Positions 30,876 to 58,082 of a stretch of DNA of 64,000 nucleotides are shown one piece after another. Made by a program: the position numbers and the translations under genes. This stretch comes from an uncultured delta proteobacterium (GTDB lineage Bacteria > Desulfobacterota > Binatia > Binatales > Binataceae). How positions within the stretch are numbered: the stretch's first letter is position 1; each line of letters starts with the position of its first letter. Where the stretch lies: contig CAWEEQ010000004.1 of the NCBI GenBank assembly GCA_963808235.1, positions 781,084 to 845,083 of the forward strand, written 5' to 3'. The notes below the pieces were generated by a model. It did not search any database, was not told the origin of the DNA, and saw nothing but the letters and a program-made list of their open reading frames with translations.

Positions 30876-31153
30876 TTCGCTGTATGACGTCACAGCTCAA
30901 ACGGTCGAAATCCTCGCGGTCGTCGCGAAATCAGAACTGTCGCGCTTTCCGCGGTTGGCAGAGAGGGCCAGGGGATCGAAATCTGGTTAAATTCAAGCCA
31001 TGAGCGGTGATGAAGGGAATATGGGGATCCGCCAAAAGGGTTTCACTGATACAAGAGCAATAATGAGGCTGCTTAAGGCTTGACTAATTTCTTGTCTTGC
31101 TCCATAGTGATGCTGCCACCGAAAGGGCGGGCAAAAACGGGGAAGGTAGGATA

Positions 31154-31399
31154 ATGCAACGATCACGAGAAAATGATGAGACTCAGCCGGAATTCTATAC
31201 TGTCGGCCAGCTCGCGGACTTGCTCCAACTGACGCCGATGACGATATACCGGATGGTCAGACGCGGCGAGCTCGCCTGTCATGCGATCGGGCGAATCAAA
31301 CGCTTTCGCCGCGGCGACGTAGAGACGTTCCTCGAGAATTCCAGGCAGCCGGCCTCGGAAGCCACCGCGGCTCCGGCTCCTCGCCGTCTCGATGGCTGA
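31154..31399 (+). CDS. excisionase-family helix-turn-helix DNA-binding protein (HTH_17 / MerR-superfamily Xis-like)
   Basis: RBS GGAAGGTAGG. Core YTVGQLADLLQLTPMTIYRMVRRGELACHAIGRIKRFRRGDVE. 81 aa from ATG 31154. Confidence 0.7.
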   Translation: MQRSRENDETQPEFYTVGQLADLLQLTPMTIYRMVRRGELACHAIGRIKRFRRGDVETFLENSRQPASEATAAPAPRRLDG

Positions 31400-31663: not shown

Positions 31664-31882
31664 ATGCAACGCTCACGTCCGAAAGAAGACGCCCAGCCCG
31701 AGTTCTACACCGTTGGACAACTTGCCGATTTGCTGCAACTCACACCCATGACCATTTACCGCATGGTCAGGCGCGGCGAGTTGGCTTGTCACGCGATCGG
31801 TCGCATCAAGCGTTTCAGACGCGGCGATGTCGAGGCTTTTTTACAAAGCTCGAGGAAACCAGCGGCAAGCGCACCAAGCTAA
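31664..31882 (+). CDS. excisionase-family HTH DNA-binding protein, paralog of 31154-31399
   Basis: Identical 46-aa core with many synonymous nucleotide differences. 72 aa. Confidence 0.7.
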   Translation: MQRSRPKEDAQPEFYTVGQLADLLQLTPMTIYRMVRRGELACHAIGRIKRFRRGDVEAFLQSSRKPAASAPS

Positions 31883-32160
31883 GACTTGCTCGTCTTACGC
31901 TCGGCGCCTGAATCGCCGTTGGTTTGGTGTTCCGGTTCCCTGGCTACGCTCCCGCCCGCCGCGACCCATTGATCGACGACTGGCACTTCAAAGCGCAGAT
32001 CCCGTCCAACTCTAATAGCCCGCAACTGGCCTCTTCGCACCAGCCTGCGAACGGTAGCCGGATTGACATGCAGGTAGTCGGAAACCTCACGCAATGTGAG
32101 CATCCTTGCTGGCATATGCTCGCCCCTGGCTGACTCCATTCGACCCGGATTCATCCGCAA
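31879..32160 (-). CDS. excisionase-family HTH DNA-binding protein (third, divergent member)
   Basis: LTLREVSDYLHVNPATVRRLVRRGQLRAIRVGRDLRF is the same HTH_17 pattern. Start ambiguous among several in-frame Met. Confidence 0.55.
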   Translation of the reverse strand: MRMNPGRMESARGEHMPARMLTLREVSDYLHVNPATVRRLVRRGQLRAIRVGRDLRFEVPVVDQWVAAGGSVAREPEHQTNGDSGAERKTSKS

Positions 32161-32511: not shown

Positions 32512-33252
32512 GTGAGAAAAAAAACCATGAAACGAAAACTATTGGTCATAGCTCTTCTGTGTTGTGCGCAGCTTCTGTTCGGATGCTCCGCGAAGGACCC
32601 GGAGGCTACCGATATCAAGGGTGTGTCGATGGCGCCGGTGTCGCCTGCCTGCCAATTCACTTCGGTCGACGACCAGTTTCGATCATACCGGATTCAGCCG
32701 GGCGACCAGCTCGACATCAGTTTTTATATGAGCCCCGAGTTTGACCAGGACCTGACCGTACGACCCGACGGCGACATCTCGATGCCGGTGGTCGGCAATA
32801 TTCACGTGCAGGGACTAACCCCGGTCGGGCTCGAGAAGAATCTCAATCAGCTCTATTCGCAGGAGTTGAAAGATCCGAAGACCACGGTCCGCATCGACAA
32901 GAGTCCAAGCCAGGTCGTGTACGTCGAGGGCCAGGTTGGCAAACCCGGCGCGGTGCCGCTGCAGCCCGGGATGACCGCGATCCAGGCGATCGCCGCGTCG
33001 GGCGGAATGAACGATAACGCCGGACCGAGCCGGGTGATTCTCATAAGACGCGACGCGTGCGGGAACGCGCACGGGCAGCCTCTCAAGCTCGACAAAGTGC
33101 TGAACCAGAAAAATAACGAAGAAGATGTGGCGCTGCTGCCTTCGGACATCGTGGTCGTACCGCGCAGCGGGATTGCCCAATTCGATCTCGACGTGAAGCA
33201 GTACGTGCGCGACGCGATGCCGGTCGAAGTCTACGCCGCGCCGCCATTTTGA
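32512..33252 (+). CDS. polysaccharide export outer membrane protein (Wza/GumB family lipoprotein)
   Basis: Lipobox LLFGCS. Poly_export and SLBB-like segments (IQPGDQLDISF..., YVEGQVGKPG). Confidence 0.8.
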   Translation: MRKKTMKRKLLVIALLCCAQLLFGCSAKDPEATDIKGVSMAPVSPACQFTSVDDQFRSYRIQPGDQLDISFYMSPEFDQDLTVRPDGDISMPVVGNIHVQGLTPVGLEKNLNQLYSQELKDPKTTVRIDKSPSQVVYVEGQVGKPGAVPLQPGMTAIQAIAASGGMNDNAGPSRVILIRRDACGNAHGQPLKLDKVLNQKNNEEDVALLPSDIVVVPRSGIAQFDLDVKQYVRDAMPVEVYAAPPF

Positions 33253-33262
33253 GCCGAGTGGG

Positions 33263-34786
33263 ATGAATCAGATGAACAACGAAGCTGTAATGCAGTGGAT
33301 AGAGAAGATATTCCGGCGCCGGGCGTTGGCGCTCCGGATAGGCCTGCTGGTCTTCGGCGTAATCGCGCTGGGCTCGATCATGTGGCCCCCGAGCTACGCG
33401 TCGTCGTCGAAAATCCTGGTTCAATCCAACCGCGCGCAACTGCTGGTCTCGCCCGGGCTGAAGGAAGACGCCGCCAATCAATCGACCCAAACGGTTCCGG
33501 TGGCGGAGCAGGACCTCAACTCGGAGGTCGAGCTGCTGACCAGTCCGTTCCTTATTAAGCAGGCGCTCGCGGGGATGAAGCTCAATCAACGCAAGGGCGG
33601 CGTGATCGCGGGAATGCGAAACATTGTCGACGCGGTCGTCAGCGTCCCGACAGACGTGTACACGGTGCTGCACGGAGGCCCCAGCGCGACTGCGAACCAG
33701 GACGAGATTCAGAAAATCGTGAATCATCTCAGCGCGGACGTGATCAAGCGCTCGAATGTTATCGAGGTTTCGATTGTCTCGCACGATCCCGCGTGGGCGA
33801 AAGCGTTTCTCTCGCAATTGATGACTTCATACCTGAACCTGCACGGGCAGTTGTCGCAGAATCCGCAGGCGCAGGCATTTTTCCAGCAGCAGCGCGCGCT
33901 GCTCGATCAGCGCCTCCAGGACTCAGAGAAGGAGTTGCGCGCGGCGCAACTGCAGACCGGAATCGCTCAATTCAGCGAGCAGCAGCAGGCGCTCATCAAC
34001 CAGGTGTCCGCCGCCGAGGCGAACTATCGCACCACCAGCGCCTCTCTGGATTCCAAGCTGCAGCAGATCAGGAGCCAGGAAGCCGAGTTGAAGCAGACTC
34101 CGCAGCGTCAGACCAAGGAATCGAAGTCGGTCCAGAACATGGCGCTCAGCCAGTTGAAGCCGCAGATGCTTCAACTCGAAACCGAGCGTGCCGAGTTGTT
34201 GAGCCGCTATCAGCCCACCAGCGAGAGAATCCGTGCGATCGACGCCAAGCTGAAAGCCGGCCAAATCATCCTGAGCCGCGAAGATAAGACCAACGTCCAG
34301 GAAACCACCACCGATGTGAATCCGACCTGGCAGGCGCTCGATGCCGATTTGGCCAAAGCGCGGGCCGAAGCCGCGTCGGATAAGGCGGCGCAGACCACTG
34401 AAGCGGCGCAAGTCGCAACGTTACAGAATCAGCTCAAACAGATGACCACGGATGGAGTCGAGATCGAACGCCTGCAGCGCAAAGTCGATAGCGACAAGGA
34501 AGCGTACATGTCGTACGTGCGCAAGGGCGAGGAGGCCCGCGCGGCCGAGGCTCTTAACCAAAGCCGGATCCTGAACGTGAGCGTGGTGCAGGATCCGACC
34601 ACTCCGATCGATCCGGTGTCGCCGCGAATCCGGTTGAATCTGATCGCCGGGCTCCTGTTTGCCCTGATGCTGGCGGTCGCCGCGGCGCACTGGACCGAGG
34701 AATACGATCCCAAGATTTGTTCGACCGCGTCGATATTCAAGGACACCGGGCTCAGCACGGTCGCGATCCTCGACGACAGGTTGTAG
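33263..34786 (+). CDS. polysaccharide chain-length determinant protein (Wzz/GumC-like, no kinase domain)
   Basis: N-terminal TM plus Wzz-like region, long coiled-coil periplasmic segment, C-terminal TM. No P-loop. Confidence 0.7.
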   Translation: MNQMNNEAVMQWIEKIFRRRALALRIGLLVFGVIALGSIMWPPSYASSSKILVQSNRAQLLVSPGLKEDAANQSTQTVPVAEQDLNSEVELLTSPFLIKQALAGMKLNQRKGGVIAGMRNIVDAVVSVPTDVYTVLHGGPSATANQDEIQKIVNHLSADVIKRSNVIEVSIVSHDPAWAKAFLSQLMTSYLNLHGQLSQNPQAQAFFQQQRALLDQRLQDSEKELRAAQLQTGIAQFSEQQQALINQVSAAEANYRTTSASLDSKLQQIRSQEAELKQTPQRQTKESKSVQNMALSQLKPQMLQLETERAELLSRYQPTSERIRAIDAKLKAGQIILSREDKTNVQETTTDVNPTWQALDADLAKARAEAASDKAAQTTEAAQVATLQNQLKQMTTDGVEIERLQRKVDSDKEAYMSYVRKGEEARAAEALNQSRILNVSVVQDPTTPIDPVSPRIRLNLIAGLLFALMLAVAAAHWTEEYDPKICSTASIFKDTGLSTVAILDDRL

Positions 34787-34791
34787 CCGAT

Positions 34792-36375
34792 ATGTATTAC
34801 GAACACTTCAGACTTAGCGGCGCTCCCTTCGAGTTCAATCCCTCGGCGTCGGTGCTCTTCATGAGCGCGGGGCATCGCGAAGGATTGGCGGCGCTCGAGT
34901 GGGGACTGTCCGAGCCGAGCGGATTCACGATGCTGGTCGGCGAGATCGGGACCGGCAAGACCACGCTCATCTACTCGCTGCTCGCGACGCGGCATCAGGG
35001 CGTCCGGACCGCGTGGGTGGCGAATCCGCGCTTAAGCTTCGAAGACATGATGCGCCAGATTTTGGGCCAGCTGGGCGCAGTTGCGCCGGAGACGTCGGGC
35101 AAGCTCGCGCTGCTGCAGGCGTTCGACGCGCAGCTCGCGAGCCATGGGCTCGAAGAGTGCGTGGCGGTGATTGTCGACGAGGCGCAGGACCTGAGCGACG
35201 ACGCGCTGGAAGATCTGCGCCTGTTGACCAACTTTCAATCGCTCGAGCGCAGACGCCTGCAAATAGTGCTGGTCGGTCAGCTCGATCTCGCCAGAAGGCT
35301 GGGGCGGCCGCAACTGCGCCAACTGAATCAGCGAATCGGTGCGCGCGCGCTGTTGCCGACTCTGCAGGACCGGGAGATTTACGACTACGTCGAATACCGG
35401 CTGCGCTCGCGCGGCGGAGATATCGAGAACCTGTTCACGCGGAGCGCGATGCGGGAGCTCGCGCGCGCGAGCGGCGGAATCCCGCGGCGGATCAACATGC
35501 TTTGCCACAACGCGATGCTGCAGGCATACGCGGACGGCGAGCAATTCGTCGCCGAAAAGCATGTGCGTGCCGCCGCCAGCGACTACGATAATTTGCTGGT
35601 CGGCAAAGATTCGGCGTCCGCGAAGATGGCCGCATCGGCGAGCGCGGCGATGCAATCCGCGAGCACAAAGATACGGTCGGCGAGCGCGTCGATGCATTCA
35701 TCGGCGGTCTCGATGGCGCCGGCGATGCGTTCGGGCGCGACCAAGGCGGTTCGCGCGTTGAGCGCGGCGGCAACATTCGGGGCGCTGAGCTTGCTCGGCG
35801 TAGCGGTAGTCGGATTTTGCGAGATGCAGCCGGTGCACAATGATCTTTCCGCGCTGGTCAGGAAATTCGAATCGAAAGCGGCGAGTTTCAGAAGGCCAAT
35901 CGTGGTGCAGCGGGCGCCGGCGCAGTTCGTGACCGGTTCGTCCCCGGCGACCGTTCCGGCGCCGAACACAATTGGTTCGGCTCCAGCGGCCGTTCATGAC
36001 AGCACCGCCCCGGGCGCCCACGAATTGAGTACGCGCGGACACCTCAGGGGTCTTTCGGCGACTGGCCGGCGGGTTCCAGTCAAGCCGCAACCTGAAGCGA
36101 GCGCCGTTCCCAATATTTTGCCGGTGACGTTGTCGCCGGTCGGAAATATTTCCGCATCTCCGGATTCTTCGACGAAACCAGATGACGGCGCCTTGCGCAC
36201 CGACTCGACCATTTTGGTCAGGGCGGGCGACTCGCTCAGCAAGATAGCGATGAGAATCTATGGTTCGTTCGGAGCCGATGAAGTTAAGCGATTGACCGCG
36301 GCGAATCCGCAAATCAAGGACGCGAACGTGATCTATCCCGGTCAGTCTATTCACGTGCAGCAAGCTACCAAATGA
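34792..36375 (+). CDS. ExeA/GspA-like AAA ATPase with C-terminal LysM domain (EPS-locus secretion ATPase)
   Basis: Walker A VGEIGTGKTT, Walker B VIVDEAQ. C-terminal LysM (ILVRAGDSLSKIAMRIYG...YPGQSIHV). Confidence 0.75.
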   Translation: MYYEHFRLSGAPFEFNPSASVLFMSAGHREGLAALEWGLSEPSGFTMLVGEIGTGKTTLIYSLLATRHQGVRTAWVANPRLSFEDMMRQILGQLGAVAPETSGKLALLQAFDAQLASHGLEECVAVIVDEAQDLSDDALEDLRLLTNFQSLERRRLQIVLVGQLDLARRLGRPQLRQLNQRIGARALLPTLQDREIYDYVEYRLRSRGGDIENLFTRSAMRELARASGGIPRRINMLCHNAMLQAYADGEQFVAEKHVRAAASDYDNLLVGKDSASAKMAASASAAMQSASTKIRSASASMHSSAVSMAPAMRSGATKAVRALSAAATFGALSLLGVAVVGFCEMQPVHNDLSALVRKFESKAASFRRPIVVQRAPAQFVTGSSPATVPAPNTIGSAPAAVHDSTAPGAHELSTRGHLRGLSATGRRVPVKPQPEASAVPNILPVTLSPVGNISASPDSSTKPDDGALRTDSTILVRAGDSLSKIAMRIYGSFGADEVKRLTAANPQIKDANVIYPGQSIHVQQATK

Positions 36376-36393: not shown

Positions 36394-37254
36394 ATGAGTA
36401 GATACTTTCAGGCAATGGAACGCCGCAAGAACGGAATGGTTCCGTTAACTGATTCCAGGATAGGTGATGCGAGAATCGCTGATTCCAACTTCGCTGATTC
36501 GAAGGTCGTTGAGTCGAAGATCATCGATTCCAAGATCATCGAGACCAAGACCAAGCCGTTCTCACACTCACAGGCTGTAGCGCGAACTCAGCCGATGGCG
36601 CTTCCGTCTGTTTCGGAGCCGCAAGGGTTGCTCGATACGCTCGCATGCTGCCATTCGATGCGCAGCTTGAGCGAGCAGCTGGCGGCGGCGAGCGCGCACA
36701 ATGGCCCTGCGCGAATACTCATGACCGGATGCCGGCCGGGCGACGGCGTATCCACCGTGGCTGCGGCGATGGCGCTCGACATAAGTCAGCGCCTGGCGGC
36801 GCGGACAGTGCTGGTAGAAGGACAGCCGCGAGTCACGATGATGCATCCGTTCTTCGCGCGCTCTTGCGCGCCAACTCCCGCGACGATCACGAGCGCGTCG
36901 ATCGCCGTGCAAGGAACCGGATATCCGCGGCTCGAGACGGCGCGGCCGGAGCAGTTGGCGCTAGCGGACCAACCGGCACGGCTGGTGGAAGATCTGGACG
37001 AATTACTTATGCGCTATCGCCTGGCGGTTATAGATCTCGGCGTAGTGCGTTTGGACCCACGAATGTTAGCGCTGGCGCGGCCCACCGATCCGATCCTGAT
37101 TGTGGCCCGACATCTGCATACAGATCGAGCGGAAATGATCGCGACGGCAAACATCCTGCGCTCTACCGGACATCCCGTAGCTGGGGTGATTCTGAATGGA
37201 TACAAGTCGCCGTTGCCATCGCTGGTTCGCCGCCTTGTTGGAATGGAGGAATAA
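36394..37254 (+). CDS. BY-kinase/ParA-like P-loop protein with degenerate Walker A (likely pseudokinase), N-terminal pentapeptide repeats
   Basis: LMTGCRPGDGVSTVA aligns to the BY-kinase Walker A PGEGK(S/T)T but has Val in place of the Lys. No C-terminal Tyr cluster. Seven 5-aa tandem repeats (DSRIG DARIA DSNFA DSKVV ESKII DSKII ETKTK). Confidence 0.6.
   Translation: MSRYFQAMERRKNGMVPLTDSRIGDARIADSNFADSKVVESKIIDSKIIETKTKPFSHSQAVARTQPMALPSVSEPQGLLDTLACCHSMRSLSEQLAAASAHNGPARILMTGCRPGDGVSTVAAAMALDISQRLAARTVLVEGQPRVTMMHPFFARSCAPTPATITSASIAVQGTGYPRLETARPEQLALADQPARLVEDLDELLMRYRLAVIDLGVVRLDPRMLALARPTDPILIVARHLHTDRAEMIATANILRSTGHPVAGVILNGYKSPLPSLVRRLVGMEE
36451..36555 (+). repeat. 7 x 15-nt tandem coding repeat (pentapeptide [DE][SAT][KRN]-h-h)
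   Basis: Read directly: gattccaggataggt / gatgcgagaatcgct / gattccaacttcgct / gattcgaaggtcgtt / gagtcgaagatcatc / gattccaagatcatc / gagaccaagaccaag. Confidence 0.85.
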
Positions 37255-37257
37255 GCA

Positions 37258-38379
37258 ATGGAAGATCTTATCTCGCACAATGGTACTCTAGCCGGTTCAC
37301 ACAACGGCATTCACGCGCCATCAAGTGTGCCTACCTACTCAACTCGGCGCCAAATGCGCGGGATTGCGATTGTTGGGCTCGGCTACTGGGGGCCCAACTG
37401 GGTGAGAAATTTTTCCCAGATACAGGGAATCGACCATGTCGTGTGCTGTGACTTCAGCCGCCCGCGGCTCGATCACATCAAGGGACGTTACCCATCGGTA
37501 GTCATTACCGACCAGCTAGACCGGGTGCTCACCGATCCCGCGATCGACGCGGTCGTAGTTGCTACGCCGGTTAACACTCACTTTGAGATAGCAAGTCGAT
37601 GCCTGAAGGCAGGTAAGTCGACGCTGGTCGAGAAGCCACTGGCTACCTCATGCGACCAGGCAGAGCTTCTAATAAAGATGGCGCGCGAGCGCGATCTGAC
37701 GCTTATGGCGGGCCACACCTTCGAGTACAGCGCGCCGGTGGTGAAGATTCGCGAGCTGATCGACAGCGGCGAGCTCGGCGATATTTTCTACATCAGCTCG
37801 GTGCGCGCGAATCTCGGGCTCTTTCGCCGCGACGTCAACGTGGCCTGGGATCTGGCTACGCACGACATCTCGATCATCCTGATGCTGCTGGGCGAGATGC
37901 CGCTTGAGGTGACTTGCCAGGGCGAGAGCCACTATCACGATCACGTCGAAGACGTTGCGCTGCTCACGCTTCGCTTTGCCAACAACGTGATCGCTTTCGT
38001 GCACGTTAGCTGGCTCGATCCGAACAAGATTCGGCGCACAACTATAGTAGGTTCGCGCAAGATGCTGGTGTACGACGACACGGCGTTGCAGGAAAAAGTC
38101 CGCGTCTACGATAAGGGCGTCACCAAGCATCCTTACTACGACACTTATGGAGACTTTCAGCTTTCATATCGTTACGGCGACGTGAATATCCCGCGGATCG
38201 ACGACCCGGAGCCGCTCAAGGTGGAATGCGATCACTTTATTGAATGCATCAAGAGCGGGATTGCACCGAACAGCGACGGACTGAGCGGACTTAGAGTAGT
38301 GAAGGTGCTGGAAGCAGCCGACCGTTCGCTCAAGAGTCACGGAAGGCCGATAGCGCTTACTCCAACCAGGGTGAACTAG
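37258..38379 (+). CDS. Gfo/Idh/MocA family oxidoreductase (WbpB-like UDP-sugar 3-dehydrogenase candidate)
   Basis: GGAGG RBS. Rossmann motif IAIVGLGYWGPNW. EKP-containing catalytic region. Confidence 0.7.
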   Translation: MEDLISHNGTLAGSHNGIHAPSSVPTYSTRRQMRGIAIVGLGYWGPNWVRNFSQIQGIDHVVCCDFSRPRLDHIKGRYPSVVITDQLDRVLTDPAIDAVVVATPVNTHFEIASRCLKAGKSTLVEKPLATSCDQAELLIKMARERDLTLMAGHTFEYSAPVVKIRELIDSGELGDIFYISSVRANLGLFRRDVNVAWDLATHDISIILMLLGEMPLEVTCQGESHYHDHVEDVALLTLRFANNVIAFVHVSWLDPNKIRRTTIVGSRKMLVYDDTALQEKVRVYDKGVTKHPYYDTYGDFQLSYRYGDVNIPRIDDPEPLKVECDHFIECIKSGIAPNSDGLSGLRVVKVLEAADRSLKSHGRPIALTPTRVN

Positions 38380-38411
38380 CACACACCACTTAGATGTAGC
38401 ACTGAAAGAAT

Positions 38412-38924
38412 GTGAGAACTGAGATGTCACCGCACGAACTACCACCCAACGTATGCGCCTCGGCCGACGTGATCCTGGGCGAGGAGGTCCAATTAGCACC
38501 TTTCGTAAATCTATACGGATGCAGCGTCGGAGACGCGTCGCGAATCGGCGCCTTCGTGGAAGTTCAGCGCGACGCGCACATCGGCAAGCGCTGCAAGATA
38601 TCGAGTCACACTTTCATTTGTTCCGGCGTCACTATTGAAGATGAGGTTTTCATCGGTCACGGGGTGCTGTTCATCAACGATCGGCATCCACGCGCGACCA
38701 ACCCCGACGGCACCTCCAAGACCCCGGACGATTGGGTGATGGAGCGCACTTACGTGCGGCGCGGCGCCTCGATTGGGAGCGGTGCGATCATCATGTGCGG
38801 CGTCGAGATTGGCGCGAGATCGATGGTCGCAGCCGGTGCGCTAGTGACCAGTGACGTTCCCGCGCGAGCAACTGTCCTAGGTATACCGGCACGTCTATAT
38901 ACCGGCCAGCGCCGGTCCGCATAG
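38412..38924 (+). CDS. hexapeptide-repeat acyltransferase (WbpD/WlbB-like sugar N-acetyltransferase candidate)
   Basis: Left-handed beta-helix hexapeptide repeats throughout (GAFVEVQRDAHIGKRCKISSHTFICSGVTIEDEVFIGHGV). Confidence 0.7.
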   Translation: MRTEMSPHELPPNVCASADVILGEEVQLAPFVNLYGCSVGDASRIGAFVEVQRDAHIGKRCKISSHTFICSGVTIEDEVFIGHGVLFINDRHPRATNPDGTSKTPDDWVMERTYVRRGASIGSGAIIMCGVEIGARSMVAAGALVTSDVPARATVLGIPARLYTGQRRSA

Positions 38925-38941
38925 ATCAGGAGTCGAACGAG

Positions 38942-40078
38942 ATGCCAATCAAATTTTTGGACCTCGCGGCACAGAACCGCGAAATCATGCCACAAGTCGA
39001 GCGCGGCTTCGCGGAAATCCACGAGAAGACTTCGTACGTTGGAGGCCCACAGGTGGCGGCGTTCGAAGAGGAATTTGCGAACTTCCTGGGCGCCCGCCAG
39101 GTGATCAGCGTGGCGAGCGGGACCGACGCGCTAAGACTCGCGCTGCTCGCGATCGGAATCGGGCCGGGCGACGAAGTGATCACGACTCCGATGACGTTCA
39201 TCGCGACTGCCGAAGCGATCGTGCAGACCGGCGCGCGGCCCTCGTTTGTGGATATCGATCCGAACACCGGAAATATGAGTGTTCCGGAAATCTCGCGCTA
39301 CCTCGAGCGGGGACGCTTCACAGCGCCCAACGGCCCGCGCGCGATCGTCCCGGTTCATCTCTACGGAATGCCGGCGCCGATGATCGAAATGCGCGATCTC
39401 GCGCAGGCGTGCAACCTTAAACTGATCGAGGACGCATGCCAGGCGCATGGCGCGCGCATCACTCACGACGGCCAATCGCAATATGCCGGCACGATCGGCG
39501 CGGCCGGTTGCTTCAGTTTTTATCCCGGTAAGAATCTGGGCGCGTGGGGCGAAGGCGGGGCCGTGGCGACCAATGACGAGGAGCTGGCGGCGCAGATCCG
39601 TACGTTACGCGACCACGGACGCCTTTCGCACTACGCGCACAGTGCATATGGATACAATGCGCGGCTCGACACGATGCAGGCGGCGGTACTCCGTCCGAAG
39701 CTCGAGCGCCTGGCGGAGTGGAATGCACGACGCCGGCACTTCGCGGCGCTTTATCGTGAAACTCTGCCTCACGAGGTGGAGCTGCTGTCCGAGCCCGAGG
39801 GTATCGAGTCGTGCTACCACCTGTTCGTCATCCGCAGCGAGCGGCGAGACGCGATCAGAACCGCGCTGCTGCAAAACCAGATCGAGTGCGGGATCCATTA
39901 CCCGGTTCCGCTTCATCTACAGCCGGCATGCCGCGACCTCGGATATGCGCAAGGAGATTTTCCGCACGCCGAGACGATGGCTGACACCGTGCTGTCATTG
40001 CCGATGCATCCCTTTCTGACCGAGCGCGAAGTTAAGACGGTCAGCCAGGCAGTCAAGCGCGCATTAACCACAGGTTGA
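38942..40078 (+). CDS. DegT/DnrJ/EryC1/StrS family PLP-dependent sugar aminotransferase (WbpE-like)
   Basis: SGTDAL, PGDEVI, CFSFYPGKNLGAWGEGG (PLP lysine region). Confidence 0.8.
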   Translation: MPIKFLDLAAQNREIMPQVERGFAEIHEKTSYVGGPQVAAFEEEFANFLGARQVISVASGTDALRLALLAIGIGPGDEVITTPMTFIATAEAIVQTGARPSFVDIDPNTGNMSVPEISRYLERGRFTAPNGPRAIVPVHLYGMPAPMIEMRDLAQACNLKLIEDACQAHGARITHDGQSQYAGTIGAAGCFSFYPGKNLGAWGEGGAVATNDEELAAQIRTLRDHGRLSHYAHSAYGYNARLDTMQAAVLRPKLERLAEWNARRRHFAALYRETLPHEVELLSEPEGIESCYHLFVIRSERRDAIRTALLQNQIECGIHYPVPLHLQPACRDLGYAQGDFPHAETMADTVLSLPMHPFLTEREVKTVSQAVKRALTTG

Positions 40079-40085
40079 TAATGTT

Positions 40086-41600
40086 GTGTTAGGCGGGGAA
40101 TTACAGCGTCAGAAGGCGCTACTTGCGGCCACCGACGCGCTAGCAGTCGTCGGCGCGTGTGCACTGTCGCAAGCCATCAGGAACCACGATTTATACCCCC
40201 TGGACCCAGGCAACTGGGGCGAGGCGCTGGCGGGCATGGCGATGCTGGGTGTGATCTGGATACTGGTCGCGCGCGCGGTCGGGCTGTATCGAAACGGGCG
40301 GCGGCACGAAGTCAAGTCGATCGTGAAGGCGAGTTGCGCGGCGTGGTTCACGATGGTGTCGATCAGCTTTTTCCTGCATCTGGCGCCATCGCGGCTGGTG
40401 GTAGGCATCGGACTGGCGCTGACGATTGGTTTTGTCGTAACGGCGCGGATGCTGGTCCGCCGCTGCATCAAGTTTTTTTATTCGCGCCCCGAGTTCGCGG
40501 TGCCGCTGGTCATCGTTGGGGTCAATTCGTTCGGTGTTTACCTGCGTGATCGAATCAAGGAAGAGCTCACGCAGTACGAATTCCTGGGCTTTGTAGATGA
40601 AAACCCGGTCCCGCTCGCATCCAACGGTGTGAACGGGCACAGCGGCACCAACGGACACGACGACGCGAATCGGCACAACGGGCATTCCAAAACGAACGGA
40701 CATTTTGGATCGACCGGGCTCGCCACTCCGGCGCCGGTAATCGGAAGCCTCGAACGCATCGCGAGTCTCGCAATCGTACATCCCAACCTTGAGGCGGTGA
40801 TAGTTCTTCCCGAGCGCGACCACAGCCAGGTCGAGCGTATCATTAAGCTTTGCGAGCGTTATCGAGTTCGCTGGCGGATGATGCCGCGAGTTGCGGAATC
40901 GATGGCTCTGACGGTGGAGATGGTCGGCGCGATTCCGCTGATTGGGCCTCCGGGATCGAACATCGAAGGGCTCAACTGCGTGGTAAAGCGCGGCTTCGAT
41001 GTCGTGGTGGCGAGCCTCCTGCTGCTGCTTGCGTCGCCGCTCTTGATGTTCGCGGCGATTGCGATCTGGCTCACCGACGGACATCCGTTGCTGTTTCGCC
41101 AGACCAGGGTCGGTATCCACGGCACGCCGTTCGAACTGCTGAAATTTCGCACGATGCGCACCGAGTGCTCCGACACGGTGCATCGCGAGTACGTCAAAGA
41201 ATGGATTCAGCGCAATGCGGCCGAGGGGTCGGAGCCCAACGGCGCCAAGGTTTATAAGATCGGCAGCGATCCGCGGATTACGCCGATCGGACGATGGCTG
41301 CGGCGCTTCAGCATCGACGAGCTGCCGCAACTGATCAACGTCCTTTACGGGAACATGAGTCTCATCGGACCGCGGCCCGCGATGCCGTACGAGCTCGAGC
41401 TGTACCAGGAATGGCATCGGCATCGGCTCGACGCGCCGCCGGGAATCACCGGGCTGTGGCAGGTCAGCGGACGCAATCGTCTGTCGTTCGACGAAATGGT
41501 GCAGCTCGACATCGAATATATCGAAGACTGGTCGCTCGCGGGCGACATGGGAATCCTGCTGCGGACGCTGCCCGCGATGCTGCAAGGGAATGGAATGTGA
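40086..41600 (+). CDS. polyprenyl-phosphate glycosyl-1-phosphate transferase (WbaP/EpsB-like initiating sugar transferase)
   Basis: N-terminal TM block. C-terminal Bac_transf domain (RFDVVVASLLL..., DELPQLINVLYGNMSLIGPRP). Confidence 0.8.
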   Translation: MLGGELQRQKALLAATDALAVVGACALSQAIRNHDLYPLDPGNWGEALAGMAMLGVIWILVARAVGLYRNGRRHEVKSIVKASCAAWFTMVSISFFLHLAPSRLVVGIGLALTIGFVVTARMLVRRCIKFFYSRPEFAVPLVIVGVNSFGVYLRDRIKEELTQYEFLGFVDENPVPLASNGVNGHSGTNGHDDANRHNGHSKTNGHFGSTGLATPAPVIGSLERIASLAIVHPNLEAVIVLPERDHSQVERIIKLCERYRVRWRMMPRVAESMALTVEMVGAIPLIGPPGSNIEGLNCVVKRGFDVVVASLLLLLASPLLMFAAIAIWLTDGHPLLFRQTRVGIHGTPFELLKFRTMRTECSDTVHREYVKEWIQRNAAEGSEPNGAKVYKIGSDPRITPIGRWLRRFSIDELPQLINVLYGNMSLIGPRPAMPYELELYQEWHRHRLDAPPGITGLWQVSGRNRLSFDEMVQLDIEYIEDWSLAGDMGILLRTLPAMLQGNGM

Positions 41601-43114
41601 TGGCGGCGCCGGGTGACATCAGCTCCGTAGCGAACGTCGAGGGTTGGCATTCGCCGGCCTTCGCGCGGGGCGTGCGTGACAACGTTATTGGCGAGGTCGG
41701 TCTGCAGGCAGTGCGGATCGGCGGATTGGTGGTGCTCGCGCGCGCGCTGGCGCCTTCGGACTTCGGACTGTTCAGAGTCCTGATCACGATTAGCGCAATC
41801 ATAATGATGGTCAATGATTTGGCGATGCCCGACACGCTCGTGCAGCGCCAGGAGCTCAGCAGCGCGCACGAGAGCTCTGCGTGGTGGGCGACGATCGCGG
41901 TATCGGCGTTGAGCTGCGCGGTGATCTACCTGGTCGCACCGTTGATTGCGCAAGCGATGGCGATGCCGACGATTACGGGCGCGCTGCGCCTGCTATGCAT
42001 CCCGATTCTGCTCGAAGGCTCGGTGACCGTACCGATCGCGAGGCTCACGCGCAAATTGCAATTCCGCACCCTTGCGATCGCCGAGGTCGTTGGCGAGCTG
42101 GCGTTCCTGGGCGTTGCGATCGCGCTGCTCGTGATGGGTCATCCTAGACTGAGCCTGGTCGGTGGCCTGTGTGCGCGGATGGGCGCGCATGCACTGCTTC
42201 TCTGGTGCGCTGAGCCGTACATCCCGCGAGTAGGACCAAGCCGCAAGGCGCTGCTCGAGCTGCGAGGCTTCGCGAGTGGCGCGATGGGCGGCCAAATCTT
42301 TCACGCGATTTCCTGCAACATCGACTACCTGCTGGTGGGACGCACGCTCGGAAGTTCCGCGCTTGGGTTTTACGGGATGGCGTGGGACCTGCTTCGTTTC
42401 GTTCCCGACCGGCTCTACAAAATCGCTGGCCGCGTGACGGTTCCCGCGTTCGCCCGCATGCAACATCAGCCCGAGCAACTGCGGCGCGCCTACTTGAGCT
42501 TTCTCGATTACATGTGCCGGCTGATCGTGCCGCCGCTCGTATGTATTGCGATCGCGGCGCCCGAACTGTTGCGCCAGATTTACGGACCGCAGTGGATTGC
42601 GGCCGCGCTTCCGCTGCGCATCCTGAGCTTCGGAATAATTACTATCGGGCTACGTTCGGGAATGGGCGCGGTTTTCTATTCGCTGGGACGCCCGGTATTC
42701 GAAATGTATCTGTATGCTATCCGATTCGTGCTGATCGCAGTAGCGGTGTTGGTCTCGGCATCGAGTGGATTGCTGTGGGTCTGCGCCGCTGTCAGCGCGG
42801 TCGAGGGCGCGTGCACCGTTATCGGCCAGCTGGCCGCATGCCGCCTGCTGGACGTCGGCCTCGTAAAAGTATCGCGCGCGCTCATTTCCGGATTCACGAC
42901 TGCGGCAGGCTGCGCGGCTGCGACCGTAGGCGGCAGAATGCTGGCGAACAATCTCGGTATCGGCGGCCTGTTGGAACTGTCGATGATGGTTGCGCTTCCG
43001 GCGCTCGCGTTCCTTCTAATCGAAGCTCGCACCGTTCGCGAGATGCTCAGCAGCGCGCTCGGCTCCGTAAGCGTCGACAGTCCACTTCCCGAAACCGGCC
43101 AGGAGCGGGCCTAG
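41600..43114 (+). CDS. oligosaccharide flippase (Wzx-like, MOP superfamily)
   Basis: About 12-14 TM helices. Polysacc_synt-like N-terminus. Start overlaps the upstream stop (ATGTGATG). Confidence 0.7.
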   Translation: MAAPGDISSVANVEGWHSPAFARGVRDNVIGEVGLQAVRIGGLVVLARALAPSDFGLFRVLITISAIIMMVNDLAMPDTLVQRQELSSAHESSAWWATIAVSALSCAVIYLVAPLIAQAMAMPTITGALRLLCIPILLEGSVTVPIARLTRKLQFRTLAIAEVVGELAFLGVAIALLVMGHPRLSLVGGLCARMGAHALLLWCAEPYIPRVGPSRKALLELRGFASGAMGGQIFHAISCNIDYLLVGRTLGSSALGFYGMAWDLLRFVPDRLYKIAGRVTVPAFARMQHQPEQLRRAYLSFLDYMCRLIVPPLVCIAIAAPELLRQIYGPQWIAAALPLRILSFGIITIGLRSGMGAVFYSLGRPVFEMYLYAIRFVLIAVAVLVSASSGLLWVCAAVSAVEGACTVIGQLAACRLLDVGLVKVSRALISGFTTAAGCAAATVGGRMLANNLGIGGLLELSMMVALPALAFLLIEARTVREMLSSALGSVSVDSPLPETGQERA

Positions 43115-43115
43115 C

Positions 43116-44291
43116 ATGGCGCGAGTACTAATAATCGCGTACACGGCCTACGCGCGCGACGGACGCGTCAAGCGGCAGGCCGAAGCATTGACCAGCCGCG
43201 GCGATCGGGTTGACGCGATCTGCCTTGCCGACGGCAATGTCGCCGACACGCACGGAGTCAACGTCACCGGACTCAGGCTTCCGCGCTATCGTGGCGCAAG
43301 CAGAATTAACTACCTGCGAAGCTATATAAACTTCTTCGCCCGCGCGGCTGCGCTTGCGGTTCGACGCAGCATGAAGGAGCGCTACGATATAGTGATCGCC
43401 TGTACGATGCCCGATGCGGCAATACTAAGTGCATTACCATGTCGGTTGTTTGGATCGAAGTTAGTACTCGATGTCCACGATACCATGCCGGAGCTGTATC
43501 TCGACAAGTTTGGCGGCCGGCTGGGGCGAATCGGCGCGCGGATGCTGATGCTTCAGGAGCGCTTGAGCGCGCGACTCGCGGACCAGGTGCTGGCAGTGCA
43601 CGATTTGCACGCTGAACGCCTGCATCAATCCGGGATACCGGAACGCAAGCTGGTGGTGATTACCAACTCGCCCGATCCGCGAATTTTCCCGGTCGCGGAT
43701 TCGAATCAGCCGCGCCGAATCCGGCCGAACGATGAACCATTTTCGATCATCTGCCATGGAACAATTACCCGCAGGCTCGGGCTGGATACTGCTCTGGCGG
43801 CGTTAGCCCTGCTGCACGAGCGATTTCCTCTCATCCGGCTCAAGGTTATAGGCGCCGGCGATCATTTGAACGAGGTCAAGACTCTCAGCCGGCAACTCGG
43901 CGTCGAGTCCGCGGTCAGTTTCGAACCTCCAGTTCCGATTCAGGAACTGGCCTGCAAAATCGGCGAGGCTCACGTCGGACTGGTTCCCAACCATGCCTCG
44001 AGCGCGACGCATCTGATGCTGCCGGTCAAGCTGCTTGAATATGTGGCGGTCGGAATCCCGGTGATATGTGCTCGTTTACGAACCGTCGAGCATTACTTCG
44101 ACGAAAGATCGGTGCGTTATTTTTCTCCGAACAACGCATCGCAACTGGCGCACGCGATCGAGGATTTGTACCTCGATCCGGCGCTACGAGATAGCCTTTC
44201 GAATTCCGCGGCAAAAGTGGTTAAGAGCTTCAGCTGGCCCGTCCATAGCCAGCGCTTCTGCAATGCGGTCGATTCGCTACTCAACGTTTAG
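43116..44291 (+). CDS. glycosyltransferase family 4 (GT-B)
   Basis: C-terminal E-x7-E region (KLLEYVAVGIPVICARL). 391 aa. Confidence 0.75.
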   Translation: MARVLIIAYTAYARDGRVKRQAEALTSRGDRVDAICLADGNVADTHGVNVTGLRLPRYRGASRINYLRSYINFFARAAALAVRRSMKERYDIVIACTMPDAAILSALPCRLFGSKLVLDVHDTMPELYLDKFGGRLGRIGARMLMLQERLSARLADQVLAVHDLHAERLHQSGIPERKLVVITNSPDPRIFPVADSNQPRRIRPNDEPFSIICHGTITRRLGLDTALAALALLHERFPLIRLKVIGAGDHLNEVKTLSRQLGVESAVSFEPPVPIQELACKIGEAHVGLVPNHASSATHLMLPVKLLEYVAVGIPVICARLRTVEHYFDERSVRYFSPNNASQLAHAIEDLYLDPALRDSLSNSAAKVVKSFSWPVHSQRFCNAVDSLLNV

Positions 44292-44304
44292 GAGGAGTTA
44301 TCAA

Positions 44305-45120
44305 GTGCGCAGCGCAATACCATTGGTAGTAGGCTTGGGCGAAGTCGGAAGCGCCTTGTCGCAAGTGCTGAAGGGCGACGGCCGGCGCATCCTCGAGCAC
44401 GACATCGAAAGACGCGAGTTCGACGAACCGATCAGCGTGATGCATCTGTGTTTTCCATTCACCCGGCAGGATGCTTTCGAAGCTATCGCGCTTTCCTATA
44501 TCAAGCGGTTCAAGCCGGAACTGACTATCATCAACAGCACTGTAGTTCCCGGAACCAGCCGGTCGATAGCTGAAAAAGCGTCGGCGCCGGTTGCCTATAG
44601 TCCGGTGCGCGGCAAACACATCCGAATGGCGCAGGACCTGCTGAAGTACCGCAAGTTCGTCGCTGGCACCGATGATGAGACCACGAATCGAGCTGTCGAG
44701 CATTTTCGCGAAGCCGGAATGACTACTCAGTGCATTAGCAAGTTGGAGACTCTCGAGCTTGCCAAGCTCGGTGAGACTACCTACTTCGGCGTGCTGATCG
44801 CCTTCGCACAGGAGCTCAACCGTTACGCTAATCGGGTCGATGCTGACTATGTGGAAGCGCTGGACCTGTTCGAGGAAGTCGATTTTCTGCCGCCCACGAA
44901 ATACTACCCGGGCTTCATCGGCGGTCACTGTGTGATTCCAAATATACAATTGCTGCGCACGATTGCGTCGTCGCCACTGCTCGAGGCGGTCCTCGAATCC
45001 AACCGGATGCGCGCGGGCGAGTTGGCCAACGAAGCCAAGATGGCCCTCACGCCCGAACTCAAGCCGGGCGCTGCCGCCAACGGACACAAAACGGAGTCGC
45101 AGGCTCAGCTGCGTCGCTGA
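44305..45120 (+). CDS. nucleotide-sugar dehydrogenase-like protein, short form (UDP-glucose/GDP-mannose dehydrogenase family N-terminal and central domains)
   Basis: GGAGG RBS with GTG start. Rossmann VVGLGEVGSAL. Catalytic-Cys-like GFIGGHCV. Only about 272 aa, lacking the usual C-terminal UDP-binding domain. Confidence 0.5.
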   Translation: MRSAIPLVVGLGEVGSALSQVLKGDGRRILEHDIERREFDEPISVMHLCFPFTRQDAFEAIALSYIKRFKPELTIINSTVVPGTSRSIAEKASAPVAYSPVRGKHIRMAQDLLKYRKFVAGTDDETTNRAVEHFREAGMTTQCISKLETLELAKLGETTYFGVLIAFAQELNRYANRVDADYVEALDLFEEVDFLPPTKYYPGFIGGHCVIPNIQLLRTIASSPLLEAVLESNRMRAGELANEAKMALTPELKPGAAANGHKTESQAQLRR

Positions 45121-45139
45121 CGGCAGCCAAGAAGTGAAA

Positions 45140-46570
45140 ATGGAACTCGTGCAGACAGCCAGAGTATCCAAACCGCCGGCCGCCGCGATGCTGGCCGGTG
45201 TGGCGGGGCTTGGCCTGCTCGGCTTGCTGATGCTCAACTATCCGAGCCTCGCGGCCGGCGCGGTGGTCCTTGCCGGCGGAGTCGCGGTCATTTGGGCGGC
45301 CCAGATGGTGCAGGGCAACACTGGCTACCTGCTTTGCTCGCTCCTGGTTATTGAAGAGCTGAGCGGGGCAAACTTTATCCCGCTCACACCCGATCAGCTC
45401 TACCTGGTCCGTTATCCATTGCTGGTTGCATTTTGCGGAGCCTCCGTGTGGAAGGCGCTCCATGACAAAGAGATATGGCGGGGCGGATTCCTTGATTACC
45501 TGATCTATCTTGGTTTTGGCGTTATAAGTATTTCCTATTCACTATTGCCTGGCTATTCGACCGCCAGGATTGCAGCTGCAATTCTGATGTTCATGACGAT
45601 AGTCAGAATTGCCCAAGCAGTAGCTAATCGCGAAGATATCGAGAAGCTACTCAATTGGTATCTGATCGGAACCGGAATCGTCTGGCTGGTGATACTGATC
45701 TGCTCGCTGACCATGTCTTACGATCTGATCTGGGACGTGGAAGACATGACCGGCATTGTTCGCCTGCGCGGCATCTACGGTTCTCCGAATCTGATTGGCG
45801 AAATCGCACTCCCCACCATGGGCGTGGCGGCGGTCATGTGGAACTCGGCCAGCGGATGGAAACGGGCGCTGCTCGCCGCGGAGATAATGCTGGCGGTCAC
45901 GCTCGCGATGCTGGCCGATTCGCGATCGCCATTCATCGGTTTCGGACTCGGCGGGCTCCTCTATTTGATTTGGAGATACCGGTTCCGCGCGGTGCCGATC
46001 ATTCTCGCGCTCGGAGTGGTGGGCTTCGGCCTAATTAGTCAGCTCAATCCCGAGTATCTCAGTCGTGGCGACGTTACCAGTCTCACCGGACGCACCGACA
46101 TCTGGAAGTTTGCGATCGAGAAAATCGAGCAACGTCCGCTGATCGGATATGGCTTCGAGGTCGAAGGCGAAATCATGAAGGCCCACGACTTTCCGATCTG
46201 GTGGGGACCGTGGGAGGAAGGCCCGCGCAGTTCCATCCACAGTGATTATCTGTCGAAGGCGGTCAGCCTCGGCGTCCCGGCGCTGATATTTTGGGTATTT
46301 TTCATCATCCGTCCGTGGCTCGCGCTGCTCCGGCGCAAGGACGATCCGTGGAATCTGAAACCGCTCTTGTTTCTCGTTGTCATTCCGATCCTGATTCTAG
46401 ATTTCACTGAGGCCACCGGCGACTGCCGTTATGCAGTAGGGACGATCGCGACGCTTGGTTGGGCGCTGGCGGAAAGGCAACGACTCGCGAACTTGCGCCG
46501 CCGTCCCGCGGCGCTCCAGCCGGCAGAGCCGATCAACCCGGCGACACCGCTGCTGCGGCGAGTAGGTTAA
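45140..46570 (+). CDS. O-antigen ligase/polymerase-like membrane protein (Wzy_C domain)
   Basis: Multiple TM helices. Wzy_C-like periplasmic loop (LLAAEIMLAVTLAMLADSRSP). 476 aa from ATG 45140. Confidence 0.7.
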   Translation: MELVQTARVSKPPAAAMLAGVAGLGLLGLLMLNYPSLAAGAVVLAGGVAVIWAAQMVQGNTGYLLCSLLVIEELSGANFIPLTPDQLYLVRYPLLVAFCGASVWKALHDKEIWRGGFLDYLIYLGFGVISISYSLLPGYSTARIAAAILMFMTIVRIAQAVANREDIEKLLNWYLIGTGIVWLVILICSLTMSYDLIWDVEDMTGIVRLRGIYGSPNLIGEIALPTMGVAAVMWNSASGWKRALLAAEIMLAVTLAMLADSRSPFIGFGLGGLLYLIWRYRFRAVPIILALGVVGFGLISQLNPEYLSRGDVTSLTGRTDIWKFAIEKIEQRPLIGYGFEVEGEIMKAHDFPIWWGPWEEGPRSSIHSDYLSKAVSLGVPALIFWVFFIIRPWLALLRRKDDPWNLKPLLFLVVIPILILDFTEATGDCRYAVGTIATLGWALAERQRLANLRRRPAALQPAEPINPATPLLRRVG

Positions 46571-53434: not shown

Positions 53435-53852
53435 TTCTATGACATATAGTTAGCACCAATCCGCGCCACCGAGTCGTAAGGATCCTCGCGATCGATCACC
53501 CCAATAGCTGGATTCGCGAACATCAGCGCGTCCTCGCGGGTATCGCCGGCAGGGCGCTGAAGCCCTGAGCCATGGCGACGCGCTCCGTCGTACCATTAGC
53601 TACGCCGCGTTTCGATTGCTCGATAGAAAGCCCGATCGCCAATCCAGTCAATATCGTTGAGTGTCAACGCGGCGACACTTTCTAGCTTTTCTTAATTTTT
53701 AGGTACAGGATTAATTGAAATCCACCCTTCCCCTTGTGTACCTACTTCACCCAAGACATTTCGAGAATTCGACTGCGGATTGTGTCCTTAGCGCGTTGAC
53801 CTGTTGACCGGTGCCGGCGTGTGTAGGGCGAGAGCTGGGGAGTAGCTCTGGT

Positions 53853-57914: not shown

Positions 57915-58082
57915 AAATGTCACTGTGGAGACATTTAGATAGTCAATAACGATAGTCAGAACCAGGCTGGAACGAGGTCCGATAGTAGGCGCTGGCTGTA
58001 GATTGCCGGGGAATTGGGTTTTTTAAGCCAGGCACCGCGTGTTGCCTTTAGTGGTCGTGGTGCCGGGCTTGGGGGAGAAAAA

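Follow-up and report, generated by a model that had tools for sequence, protein, structure and literature searches.

The window analysed here is a stretch of 64,000 nucleotides (nt) from the contig CAWEEQ010000004.1 (assembly GCA_963808235.1, positions 781,084 to 845,083), which belongs to an uncultured delta proteobacterium of the Binatia. One of its genes, at 36394-37254, encodes a stand-alone protein which keeps the fold of the bacterial tyrosine kinases (BY-kinases) and has lost the motifs of autophosphorylation. This BY pseudokinase is probably the cytoplasmic partner of a class 2 polysaccharide co-polymerase (PCP-2) which has no kinase domain. By analogy with known systems, it would dock on the tail of this PCP and act as a scaffold, independently of phosphorylation.

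The Binatia are an uncultured phylum, abundant in soil and peat, and nothing was found in the literature on their polysaccharide loci. The class of BY pseudokinases paired with a kinase-less PCP-2 is already known from EcpK and HfsB (PMC12004946); its first experimental characterisation dates from 2025. The Binatia family is a new, very divergent lineage of this class, which it would extend to this phylum. It is distinguished by the P-loop scaffold which it retains, by the neighbouring gene for an ExeA-like ATPase and by a pentapeptide linker of polymorphic length, the linker being the sole unusual detail.

Fold, motif losses and conservation of the pseudokinase

The gene, the domain and the three remnants of the nucleotide-binding motifs are the following.

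36394-37254 (+): stand-alone BY-pseudokinase gene, 286 amino acids, stop codon included in the coordinates (open reading frame, AlphaFold2 and Foldseek, hhalign, dN/dS)
36619-37251 (+): BY-kinase-like P-loop domain, residues 76-286 (AlphaFold2 confidence, Foldseek)
36727-36756 (+): degenerate Walker A GCRPGDGVST, residues 112-121, with V119 in place of the catalytic lysine (phmmer, hhalign)
36808-36831 (+): degenerate Walker A' VLVEGQPR, canonical form hhhhDxDxR (hhalign)
37021-37044 (+): Walker B remnant LAVIDLGV, Asp214 kept and PP gone (hhalign alignment to hhhhD[ST]PP)

The AlphaFold2 (AF2) model, calculated from an alignment of 80 homologues, keeps seven strands. For residues 76-286, the predicted local distance difference test (pLDDT) lies mostly at 86-96 within the core strands and helices and falls to 61-81 in the loops of residues 141-200; residues 13-73 are predicted to be disordered. 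The top 50 Foldseek matches of this model in the PDB are all BY-kinase domains, the best being Wzc (3la6, E 9e-10), followed by VpsO, CapAB, BceF and Etk, with target-normalised template-modelling scores of about 0.55-0.66. A phmmer search of the PDB sequences returns CapB (4jlv, E 5e-5, the best match), VpsO and Wzc, and hhalign aligns the family profile with a profile of canonical BY-kinases (13 domains drawn from a database search) with a probability of 99.9% and an E-value of 3e-31.

The matches to the family libraries are weak. The sole Pfam match is AAA_26 (E 2.7e-4, below cutoff). Among the NCBIfam models, TIGR01005 gives an E-value of 4e-6 (25.3 bits for a cutoff of 411.7), TIGR01007 and TIGR03018 score 24.1 bits (cutoff 108) and 16.8 bits (cutoff 230.65), respectively, and EpsG also matches weakly. 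The names now given to homologues, "Mrp family chromosome partitioning ATPase" and "receptor protein-tyrosine kinase", are both misleading. The first, which JGI applies to many homologues, and the AAA_26 match could suggest a positioning ATPase of the MinD/ParA/Mrp type, unrelated to polysaccharide co-polymerases. This is very improbable: the best matches in sequence and in fold are all BY-kinases, no MinD/ParA model matches at E<=1, the deviant Walker A motif KGGxGK[ST] is absent, and the gene occupies a fixed position near a PCP-2 in a Wzx/Wzy cluster.

The hhalign alignment places GCRPGDG-V/A-ST on the canonical S-A-x-P-x-E-G-K-S-T, LV[E/D]x[H/Q]xR on LVDxDLR and AVIDLGV on VIIDSPP. V119 (codon GTA, 36748-36750) falls on the Walker A lysine, and phmmer likewise pairs PGDGVST with PGAGKST of CapB. 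The first-pass annotation, made from the window alone, had read this residue as a valine replacing the invariant lysine; the reading is correct at the residue level, since GK[ST] occurs nowhere in the whole protein. The loss is common to the family. The lysine column of the 80 aligned homologues contains alanine (39), valine (38), threonine (2) and leucine (1), and no lysine. At the same position in 81 genomic loci, alanine is found in 52, valine in 20 and threonine in 4, with no lysine in the 76 readable loci (the other five did not match the regular expression used for Walker A). The substitution is therefore not a sequencing error. Elsewhere in the loop, C113 and G118 are present in 80/80 homologues, D117 in 79/80 and R114 in 77/80.

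The other motifs are degraded to various extents. Both aspartates of Walker A' are changed in the window protein (to Glu and Gln, LVEGQPR lying on LVDxDLR); the second is missing in 80/80 homologues (H38, Q34, N4, R3, S1), and the first position is E in 46, D in 30 and Q in 4. Walker B had been described as weak: D214 is kept in 80/80, and LGV follows it instead of [ST]PP (L215 in 75/80, G216 in 80/80). In BY-kinases, the motif EX2RX2R on helix alpha2 is responsible for oligomerisation (PMC9800525). Its middle arginine is found in 53/80 homologues, the last arginine is a serine in 61/80, and the glutamate position is variable. The last 30 residues contain one tyrosine, and 0-1 in 73/80 homologues, so that the C-terminal tyrosine cluster is absent, as had been noted. 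The family has invariant residues of its own: E94, R107, C113, G118, D129, S131, R133, D214, G216, R219, R229, D232, R239 and T243. The earlier suspicion of a pseudokinase is thus supported by the family-wide absence of the lysine, the degenerate Walker A', oligomerisation motif and tyrosine cluster, and by purifying selection.

A word-indexed search returned 184 homologues of the pseudokinase, and 80 related loci were obtained by scanning one genome per species. Nearly all of these are titled Candidatus Binatus, Candidatus Binataceae or "uncultured delta/proteobacterium" metagenome-assembled genomes (MAGs); a few bear other titles (Acidiferrales, Thermodesulfobacteriota), which may be binning noise. 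At 62-71% identity stand loci whose titles read Binatus, Binataceae or "uncultured delta proteobacterium", and the taxonomic placement rests on these. In a HMMER scan of 1.84 billion representatives, the family is sharply separated from the generic BY-kinases: its complete members score at least about 160 bits and its fragments at least about 100, and the generic BY-kinases start at about 75 bits.

The gene is functional and under purifying selection: the dN/dS is 0.13-0.23 for the gene and 0.13-0.25 for its domain against eight relatives, and the reading frame is intact in nearly all 80 loci, with a frameshift in one (L012). A protein of identical sequence is encoded on an independent Logan contig (2.6 kb). 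The idea of a sequencing or assembly error, or of a decaying pseudogene of a true BY-kinase, which could arise only from the impression given by a single sequence, is refuted, because the substitution is family-wide, the dN/dS is low and the identical protein comes from an independent assembly; the reading frame and the synteny are also kept in nearly all 80 loci.

The pseudokinase appears to be the rule in the Binatia. It is present in every one of the 80 loci, often in two or three cluster copies per genome. Such MAGs (L002+L068, L003+L069, L009+L076, L017+L054+L058) have two or three divergent paralogous clusters, about 35-45% identical, running from the export gene to the phosphoglycosyltransferase and Wzx, each with its own Lys-less pseudokinase.

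Outside the Binatia, roughly one third of the nearest relatives are without the Walker A lysine (A, V, T, S, G or R instead) and have few C-terminal tyrosines; the stand-alone Lys-less ones include P0181, P0190, P0203, P0206, P0217, P0235, P0242, P0245 and P0265. The Lys-less relatives score 51-132 bits on TIGR01007 and 65-121 bits on TIGR03018, and 3/10 of those scanned (P0181, P0190, P0206) pass the TIGR01007 cutoff of 108 bits. Lys-less BY-kinase-like proteins are therefore common. Given these scores on autokinase models, those from outside the Binatia are probably mis-annotated in databases as active kinases.

The conservation of the loop raises the question of an enzyme "with no lysine". 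The glycine-rich loop would bind a nucleotide or another phosphate ligand (ATP or an intermediate linked to undecaprenyl pyrophosphate, Und-PP), the lysine would be compensated for by R114, which is nearly invariant, or by another basic residue, and the protein would be a switch dependent on nucleoside triphosphates, not an inert scaffold. Indeed, G112, C113, R114, G116, D117, G118, S120, T121 and D214 are 91-100% conserved in the family, far above EcpK, which has no recognisable Walker motif. Replacement of the lysine is, however, the standard way to obtain a kinase-dead BY-kinase (Wzc K540M, CapAB K55M), more distant paralogues are also without the loop glycine G116 (GCRPSDGAS, GCRPRDGAS, GCRPQDGAS), the second Walker A' aspartate is missing throughout, and no tyrosine cluster is available for phosphorylation. 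Such an enzyme, including the replacement of the lysine by R114 or another basic residue, is unlikely.

The partner co-polymerase and the proposed scaffold role

Three features lie upstream of the pseudokinase gene and bear on its role.

33263-34786 (+): partner PCP-2 (Wzz/GNVR), 507 amino acids, without kinase domain (Pfam GNVR and Wzz; TIGR03007 and TIGR01005 on the periplasmic part only)
34694-34783 (+): conserved cytoplasmic tail of the PCP, 30 amino acids, TEEYDPKICSTASIFKDTGLSTVAILDDRL, proposed docking element (conservation across loci)
34717-36375 (+), start probably near 34792: ExeA-like AAA ATPase (AAA_22 E 4e-22, LysM; TIGR03015 E 1.4e-61, below cutoff)

The PCP-2 is syntenic in essentially all 80 loci. 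It ends 30 residues after its second transmembrane (TM) helix and therefore has no kinase domain, which agrees with the earlier description of a kinase-less Wzz-like partner. Its tail, including the segment DPKICSTASIFKDTGLSTVAILDD, is conserved across loci as DP[KR]I[YC]S...I....GL.TVAVL.D. It resembles the juxtamembrane segment which precedes the kinase domain in the fused, Wzc-like relatives P0248, P0249 and P0243; thus, the split between PCP and kinase falls at the same place as in CapA/CapB.

A hidden Markov model (HMM) of canonical BY-kinases detects no other BY-kinase-like reading frame in the window. Within 10 kb on either side in the related loci, it detects only the pseudokinase itself, never with GK[ST]. 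The suggestion that the locus has no functional autokinase is supported, the pseudokinase being the only candidate in the window and in the vicinity of the 80 loci.

The ExeA-like ATPase has an intact Walker A motif (GEIGTGKTT), a TM segment, a C-terminal LysM domain and a low-complexity stretch rich in Ala, Ser and Met. The TTG start at 34717 overlaps the PCP gene by 70 nt, so that translation probably begins at the ATG near 34792 (MYYEHF). About 70/80 loci have an ExeA-like match in the interval from the PCP to the pseudokinase, and about ten show no match.

EcpK and HfsB are published precedents, and we infer from them that the pseudokinase binds the PCP and acts as a scaffold. The protein, which keeps the P-loop fold of Wzc and CapB, would not autophosphorylate, since the Walker A lysine, the second Walker A' aspartate and the tyrosine cluster are absent. 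It would dock on the 30-residue C-terminal tail of the PCP encoded two genes upstream, as proposed by analogy with EcpK/EpsV, HfsB/HfsA and CapB/CapA, and the tail would supply the juxtamembrane helix-strand element which is fused in Wzc. Once docked, the pseudokinase would stabilise the PCP or set its oligomeric state, and so control the polymerisation and export of the polysaccharide. The N-terminal basic helix is tethered to the domain by the predicted disordered linker, which in this lineage has grown to seven copies by in-frame slippage of a 15-nt unit (DSRTK). Replacement of the lysine does not prevent crystallisation or octamer assembly in the mutants Wzc K540M and CapAB K55M (entries 7nhs and 2ved, among the Foldseek matches).

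Several points limit or weigh against this scaffold model. The AF2 prediction, without an alignment, of a chimera in which the PCP tail is fused directly to the pseudokinase, as in CapAB, is uninformative (mean pLDDT 37). The ring-forming motif ExxRxxR is not conserved; a Wzc-like octamer is therefore not assured. The glycine-rich loop, S120/T121 and the Walker B aspartate are nearly invariant, and C113, R114 and D117 are new invariant residues. Such conservation seems to exceed the needs of a mere scaffold, and the protein may bind a ligand or a nucleotide. Its true functional partner could also be the ExeA-like ATPase encoded next to it. Finally, a direct kinship to EcpK or HfsB is putative, the comparison being with their published descriptions.

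The pentapeptide repeat and the N-terminal helix

Two elements precede the kinase-like domain.

36394-36432 (+): conserved basic amphipathic N-terminal helix MSRYFQAMERRKN (family alignment, AF2)
36451-36555 (+): seven tandem 15-nt units encoding pentapeptides [D/E]-[S/A/T]-[K/R/N]-x-x, predicted disordered linker (lag-15 identity, TRF, AF2)

The motif M-S-[KR]-Y-[FY]-x-A-x-x-R is kept at the N-terminus even of homologues which are only about 35% identical; R10 is present in at least 90% of the sequences, and AF2 predicts a helix at residues 3-12. A comparable N-terminus exists in stand-alone relatives from outside the Binatia, such as P0181. A wrong start codon, which would leave the repeat non-coding, was rejected: the N-terminal MSRYFQAMERRK is conserved at the protein level across the family, and a Shine-Dalgarno-like AGGTG lies 6 nt 5' of the ATG at 36394. 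An open reading frame (ORF) overlapping the gene in another frame, 36645-37451, was rejected as a shadow ORF based on its GC content at third codon positions (0.51, compared to 0.66 for the pseudokinase). The part of the protein which follows the repeat (residues 54-286, 36553-37251) contains one lysine (K271) for 24 arginines, an extreme arginine-over-lysine bias even at 59% GC.

The seven pentapeptides described by the first-pass annotation, with a 15-nt period at 36451-36555, are confirmed as exactly seven in-frame units: DSRIG, DARIA, DSNFA, DSKVV, ESKII, DSKII and ETKTK. The identity at lag 15 is 0.72, compared to 0.31 in codon shuffles, and none of 10,000 shuffles reaches 0.72. This signal is the strongest of its kind in the window, and TRF finds two period-15 arrays. 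Neighbouring units are degenerate (10-13/15 nt identical), and the pLDDT of the repeat is below 50.

DNA alignments with relatives show an in-frame insertion between GATTCCAGG and AAGCCG. On this sequence evidence, the repeat is the expansion of one ancestral DSRTK unit, of which there is one copy in L002 and L008, five in L083, seven in the window and nine in L082. Of the best-scoring 70 homologues, which have at least 59% identity in the aligned part, 54 contain a single unit and the others 2-9. Across the relatives, the number of units varies from 1 to 9, always in steps of five residues, and it also varies within clusters at 90% identity (2, 3, 4 and 5 units in a first cluster, about 1 to 5 in a second), so that the length polymorphism predicted earlier is real. 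The expansion has recurred in several sublineages.

Two other interpretations of the repeat were rejected. A phase-variable contingency locus does not fit units which are so degenerate, and no on/off switching is possible when all variants are in frame; since every variant keeps the frame, the repeat is a decayed coding minisatellite, not a switch. A pentapeptide-repeat beta-helix (PF00805, A[D/N]LXX) is contradicted by the absence of a Pfam match at E<=1, the small number of units (seven only), the different hydrophobic register and the predicted disorder.

It is an even question whether the repeat is more than a by-product of replication slippage, without function, whose copy number drifts neutrally in a tolerant linker. 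The predicted disorder of the region, the degeneracy of the units, the single unit which suffices in most of the close relatives (54/70 of the best-scoring homologues) and a linker sequence which is not conserved outside the close clade are all in line with neutral slippage. On the contrary, neutral drift is opposed by the fact that all length changes are in frame and that [D/E]-S-[K/R]-x-x is kept through synonymous changes (TCC/TCG, GAT/GAG), by the dN/dS of the N-terminal part (0.22 against the nearest relative), and by the recurrence of the expansion. The role of "interaction arm" which had been proposed, or any other function of the linker length, is conjectural.

A more elaborate scheme combines the linker with a repurposed P-loop. 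The invariant Cys-Arg-Pro-Gly-Asp-Gly loop would bind a nucleotide or a lipid pyrophosphate without lysine, while the helix would extend, on a slippage-prone tether 1-9 pentapeptides long, to another partner (the membrane, the N-terminus of the PCP or the ExeA-like ATPase), the linker length tuning polysaccharide assembly between close strains. We consider this scheme quite unlikely and prefer the phosphorylation-independent scaffold. Whatever its role, this polymorphic coding minisatellite offers a natural experiment, on a small scale, in which linker length varies.

The surrounding cluster and comparison with known systems

Judged from its genes, the window carries a polysaccharide cluster of the Wzx/Wzy type, for which generic Wzx/Wzy is the best label. 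Besides the genes described above, it contains the following.

32512-33252 (+): short outer membrane polysaccharide export protein (OPX), Wza-like, 246 amino acids, Poly_export and one SLBB (TIGR03027 E 2.5e-35; Myxococcus EpsY model NF041843 E 7e-21; syntenic)
37258-40078 (+): GFO/IDH/MocA oxidoreductase, hexapeptide acetyltransferase and DegT aminotransferase (downstream, conserved order)
40086-41600 (+): polyprenyl phosphoglycosyltransferase (PGT; downstream, conserved order)
about 41603-43114 (+): Wzx flippase (downstream, conserved order)
from 43116: GT4, Wzy_C protein, deacetylase, FemAB-like protein, methyltransferase, Crp regulator and UppS

In tblastn searches of the 80 loci with nine cluster proteins, the order OPX, PCP, ExeA-like ATPase, pseudokinase, sugar genes, PGT and Wzx is found nearly everywhere. 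The OPX looks like a periplasmic protein of the D1D2 type and would need a separate outer-membrane barrel; library scans of the window proteins identified none in the window.

Just upstream of the cluster, two tandem small ORFs (31097-31399 and 31664-31882, both +) share near-identical 45-residue helix-turn-helix cores (PEFYTVGQLADLLQLTPMTIYRMVRRGELACHAIGRIKRFRRGDVE), and a third, more distant ORF (31879-32160, -) is excisionase/MerR-like; these three may be regulators or the remnant of a mobile element. Within the cluster, 44068-45120 (+) matches only the central domain of UDP-glucose/GDP-mannose dehydrogenases (E 1e-8) and overlaps both the GT4 gene (43116-44291) and the Wzy-like gene (44963-46570); a frameshift or a truncated dehydrogenase is possible. 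Downstream, three large beta-helix/Big_7 proteins (pectate-lyase-like, DUF1565; 53811-55274, 55773-57860 and 58014-60323, all +) could be lyases or depolymerases which attack the polysaccharide made by the cluster.

The neighbours have their best NCBIfam matches in the export, chain-length and ATPase families of the XrtA/PEP-CTERM loci (TIGR03027, TIGR03007 and TIGR03015). The closest relatives from outside the Binatia match TIGR03018/TIGR01007 at 65-132 bits and share an M-S-K-x-x-x-A-x-x-R helix with the window protein. An XrtA/exosortase system was nevertheless rejected: the window protein is far below the TIGR03018 cutoff, the neighbours are all below the cutoffs of their families, and the scan of the cluster genes of the window detected no exosortase.

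The closest published parallel is EcpK (MXAN_7447) from Myxococcus xanthus, a BY pseudokinase which binds the kinase-less PCP-2 EpsV and is needed for exopolysaccharide synthesis (Blocher et al., J Bacteriol 2025, PMC12004946). Like EcpK, the Binatia protein is a stand-alone BY-kinase-like fold whose N-terminus is unstructured and whose C-terminus is a short basic helix, without the catalytic lysine and the tyrosine-rich tail. The PCP-2 is also devoid of a kinase domain and equipped with a cytoplasmic C-terminal tail, in a Wzx/Wzy cluster which has a short EpsY-like OPX. However, no Walker motif is recognisable any longer in EcpK, several of its secondary-structure elements are gone and its sheet is five-stranded, whereas the Binatia protein keeps seven strands, the glycine-rich loop GCRPGDG[A/V]ST with its Ser/Thr, and the Walker B aspartate. 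The gene order also differs: the Binatia pseudokinase is two genes from its own PCP, with the ExeA-like ATPase-LysM gene in between, while ecpK is in a second cluster. The N-terminal helix and the polymorphic pentapeptide linker are not described for EcpK.

HfsB from Caulobacter crescentus is a BY pseudokinase required for the synthesis of a polysaccharide, the holdfast, and stabilises HfsA (PMC12004946). It too is a stand-alone protein without catalytic residues or tyrosine tail, paired with a kinase-less PCP-2. HfsB is needed for the stability of HfsA and is modelled to bind its last 27 residues; the C-terminal tail of the PCP is the modelled interface in both EcpK/EpsV and HfsB/HfsA (PMC12004946). 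The differences are the polysaccharide, the phylum, and the C-terminal helix of HfsB, which is modelled against the first TM helix. The HfsB-type NCBIfam model gives no match on the window protein at E<=1. The class to which EcpK and HfsB belong is a functional one and is probably polyphyletic.

CapB/CapA from Staphylococcus aureus resembles the Binatia pair in that a membrane partner with a cytoplasmic tail of roughly 30 residues is associated with a soluble P-loop protein. Unlike the window protein, CapB is an active BY-kinase which has intact Walker A, A' and B motifs, ExxRxxR and a tyrosine cluster, and works with a phosphatase. Of these features, the window protein keeps only the Walker B aspartate and the middle arginine of ExxRxxR.

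In GumC from Xanthomonas, a BY-kinase-like cytosolic module without tyrosine cluster is proposed to act by clustering or scaffolding (PMC9800525), and fused PCP-2 "pseudo-BY-kinase" variants are listed by Cuthbertson et al. 2009, as cited in PMC12004946. In GumC and in these variants the module is fused to the PCP, whereas it is a separate protein in the Binatia. The Binatia family has an intermediate place between active kinases and EcpK. It retains the fold, the glycine-rich loop and the Walker B aspartate, and has lost the lysine, the second Walker A' aspartate, the oligomerisation motif and the tyrosine tail. A form of this kind can help to establish what a scaffold really requires.

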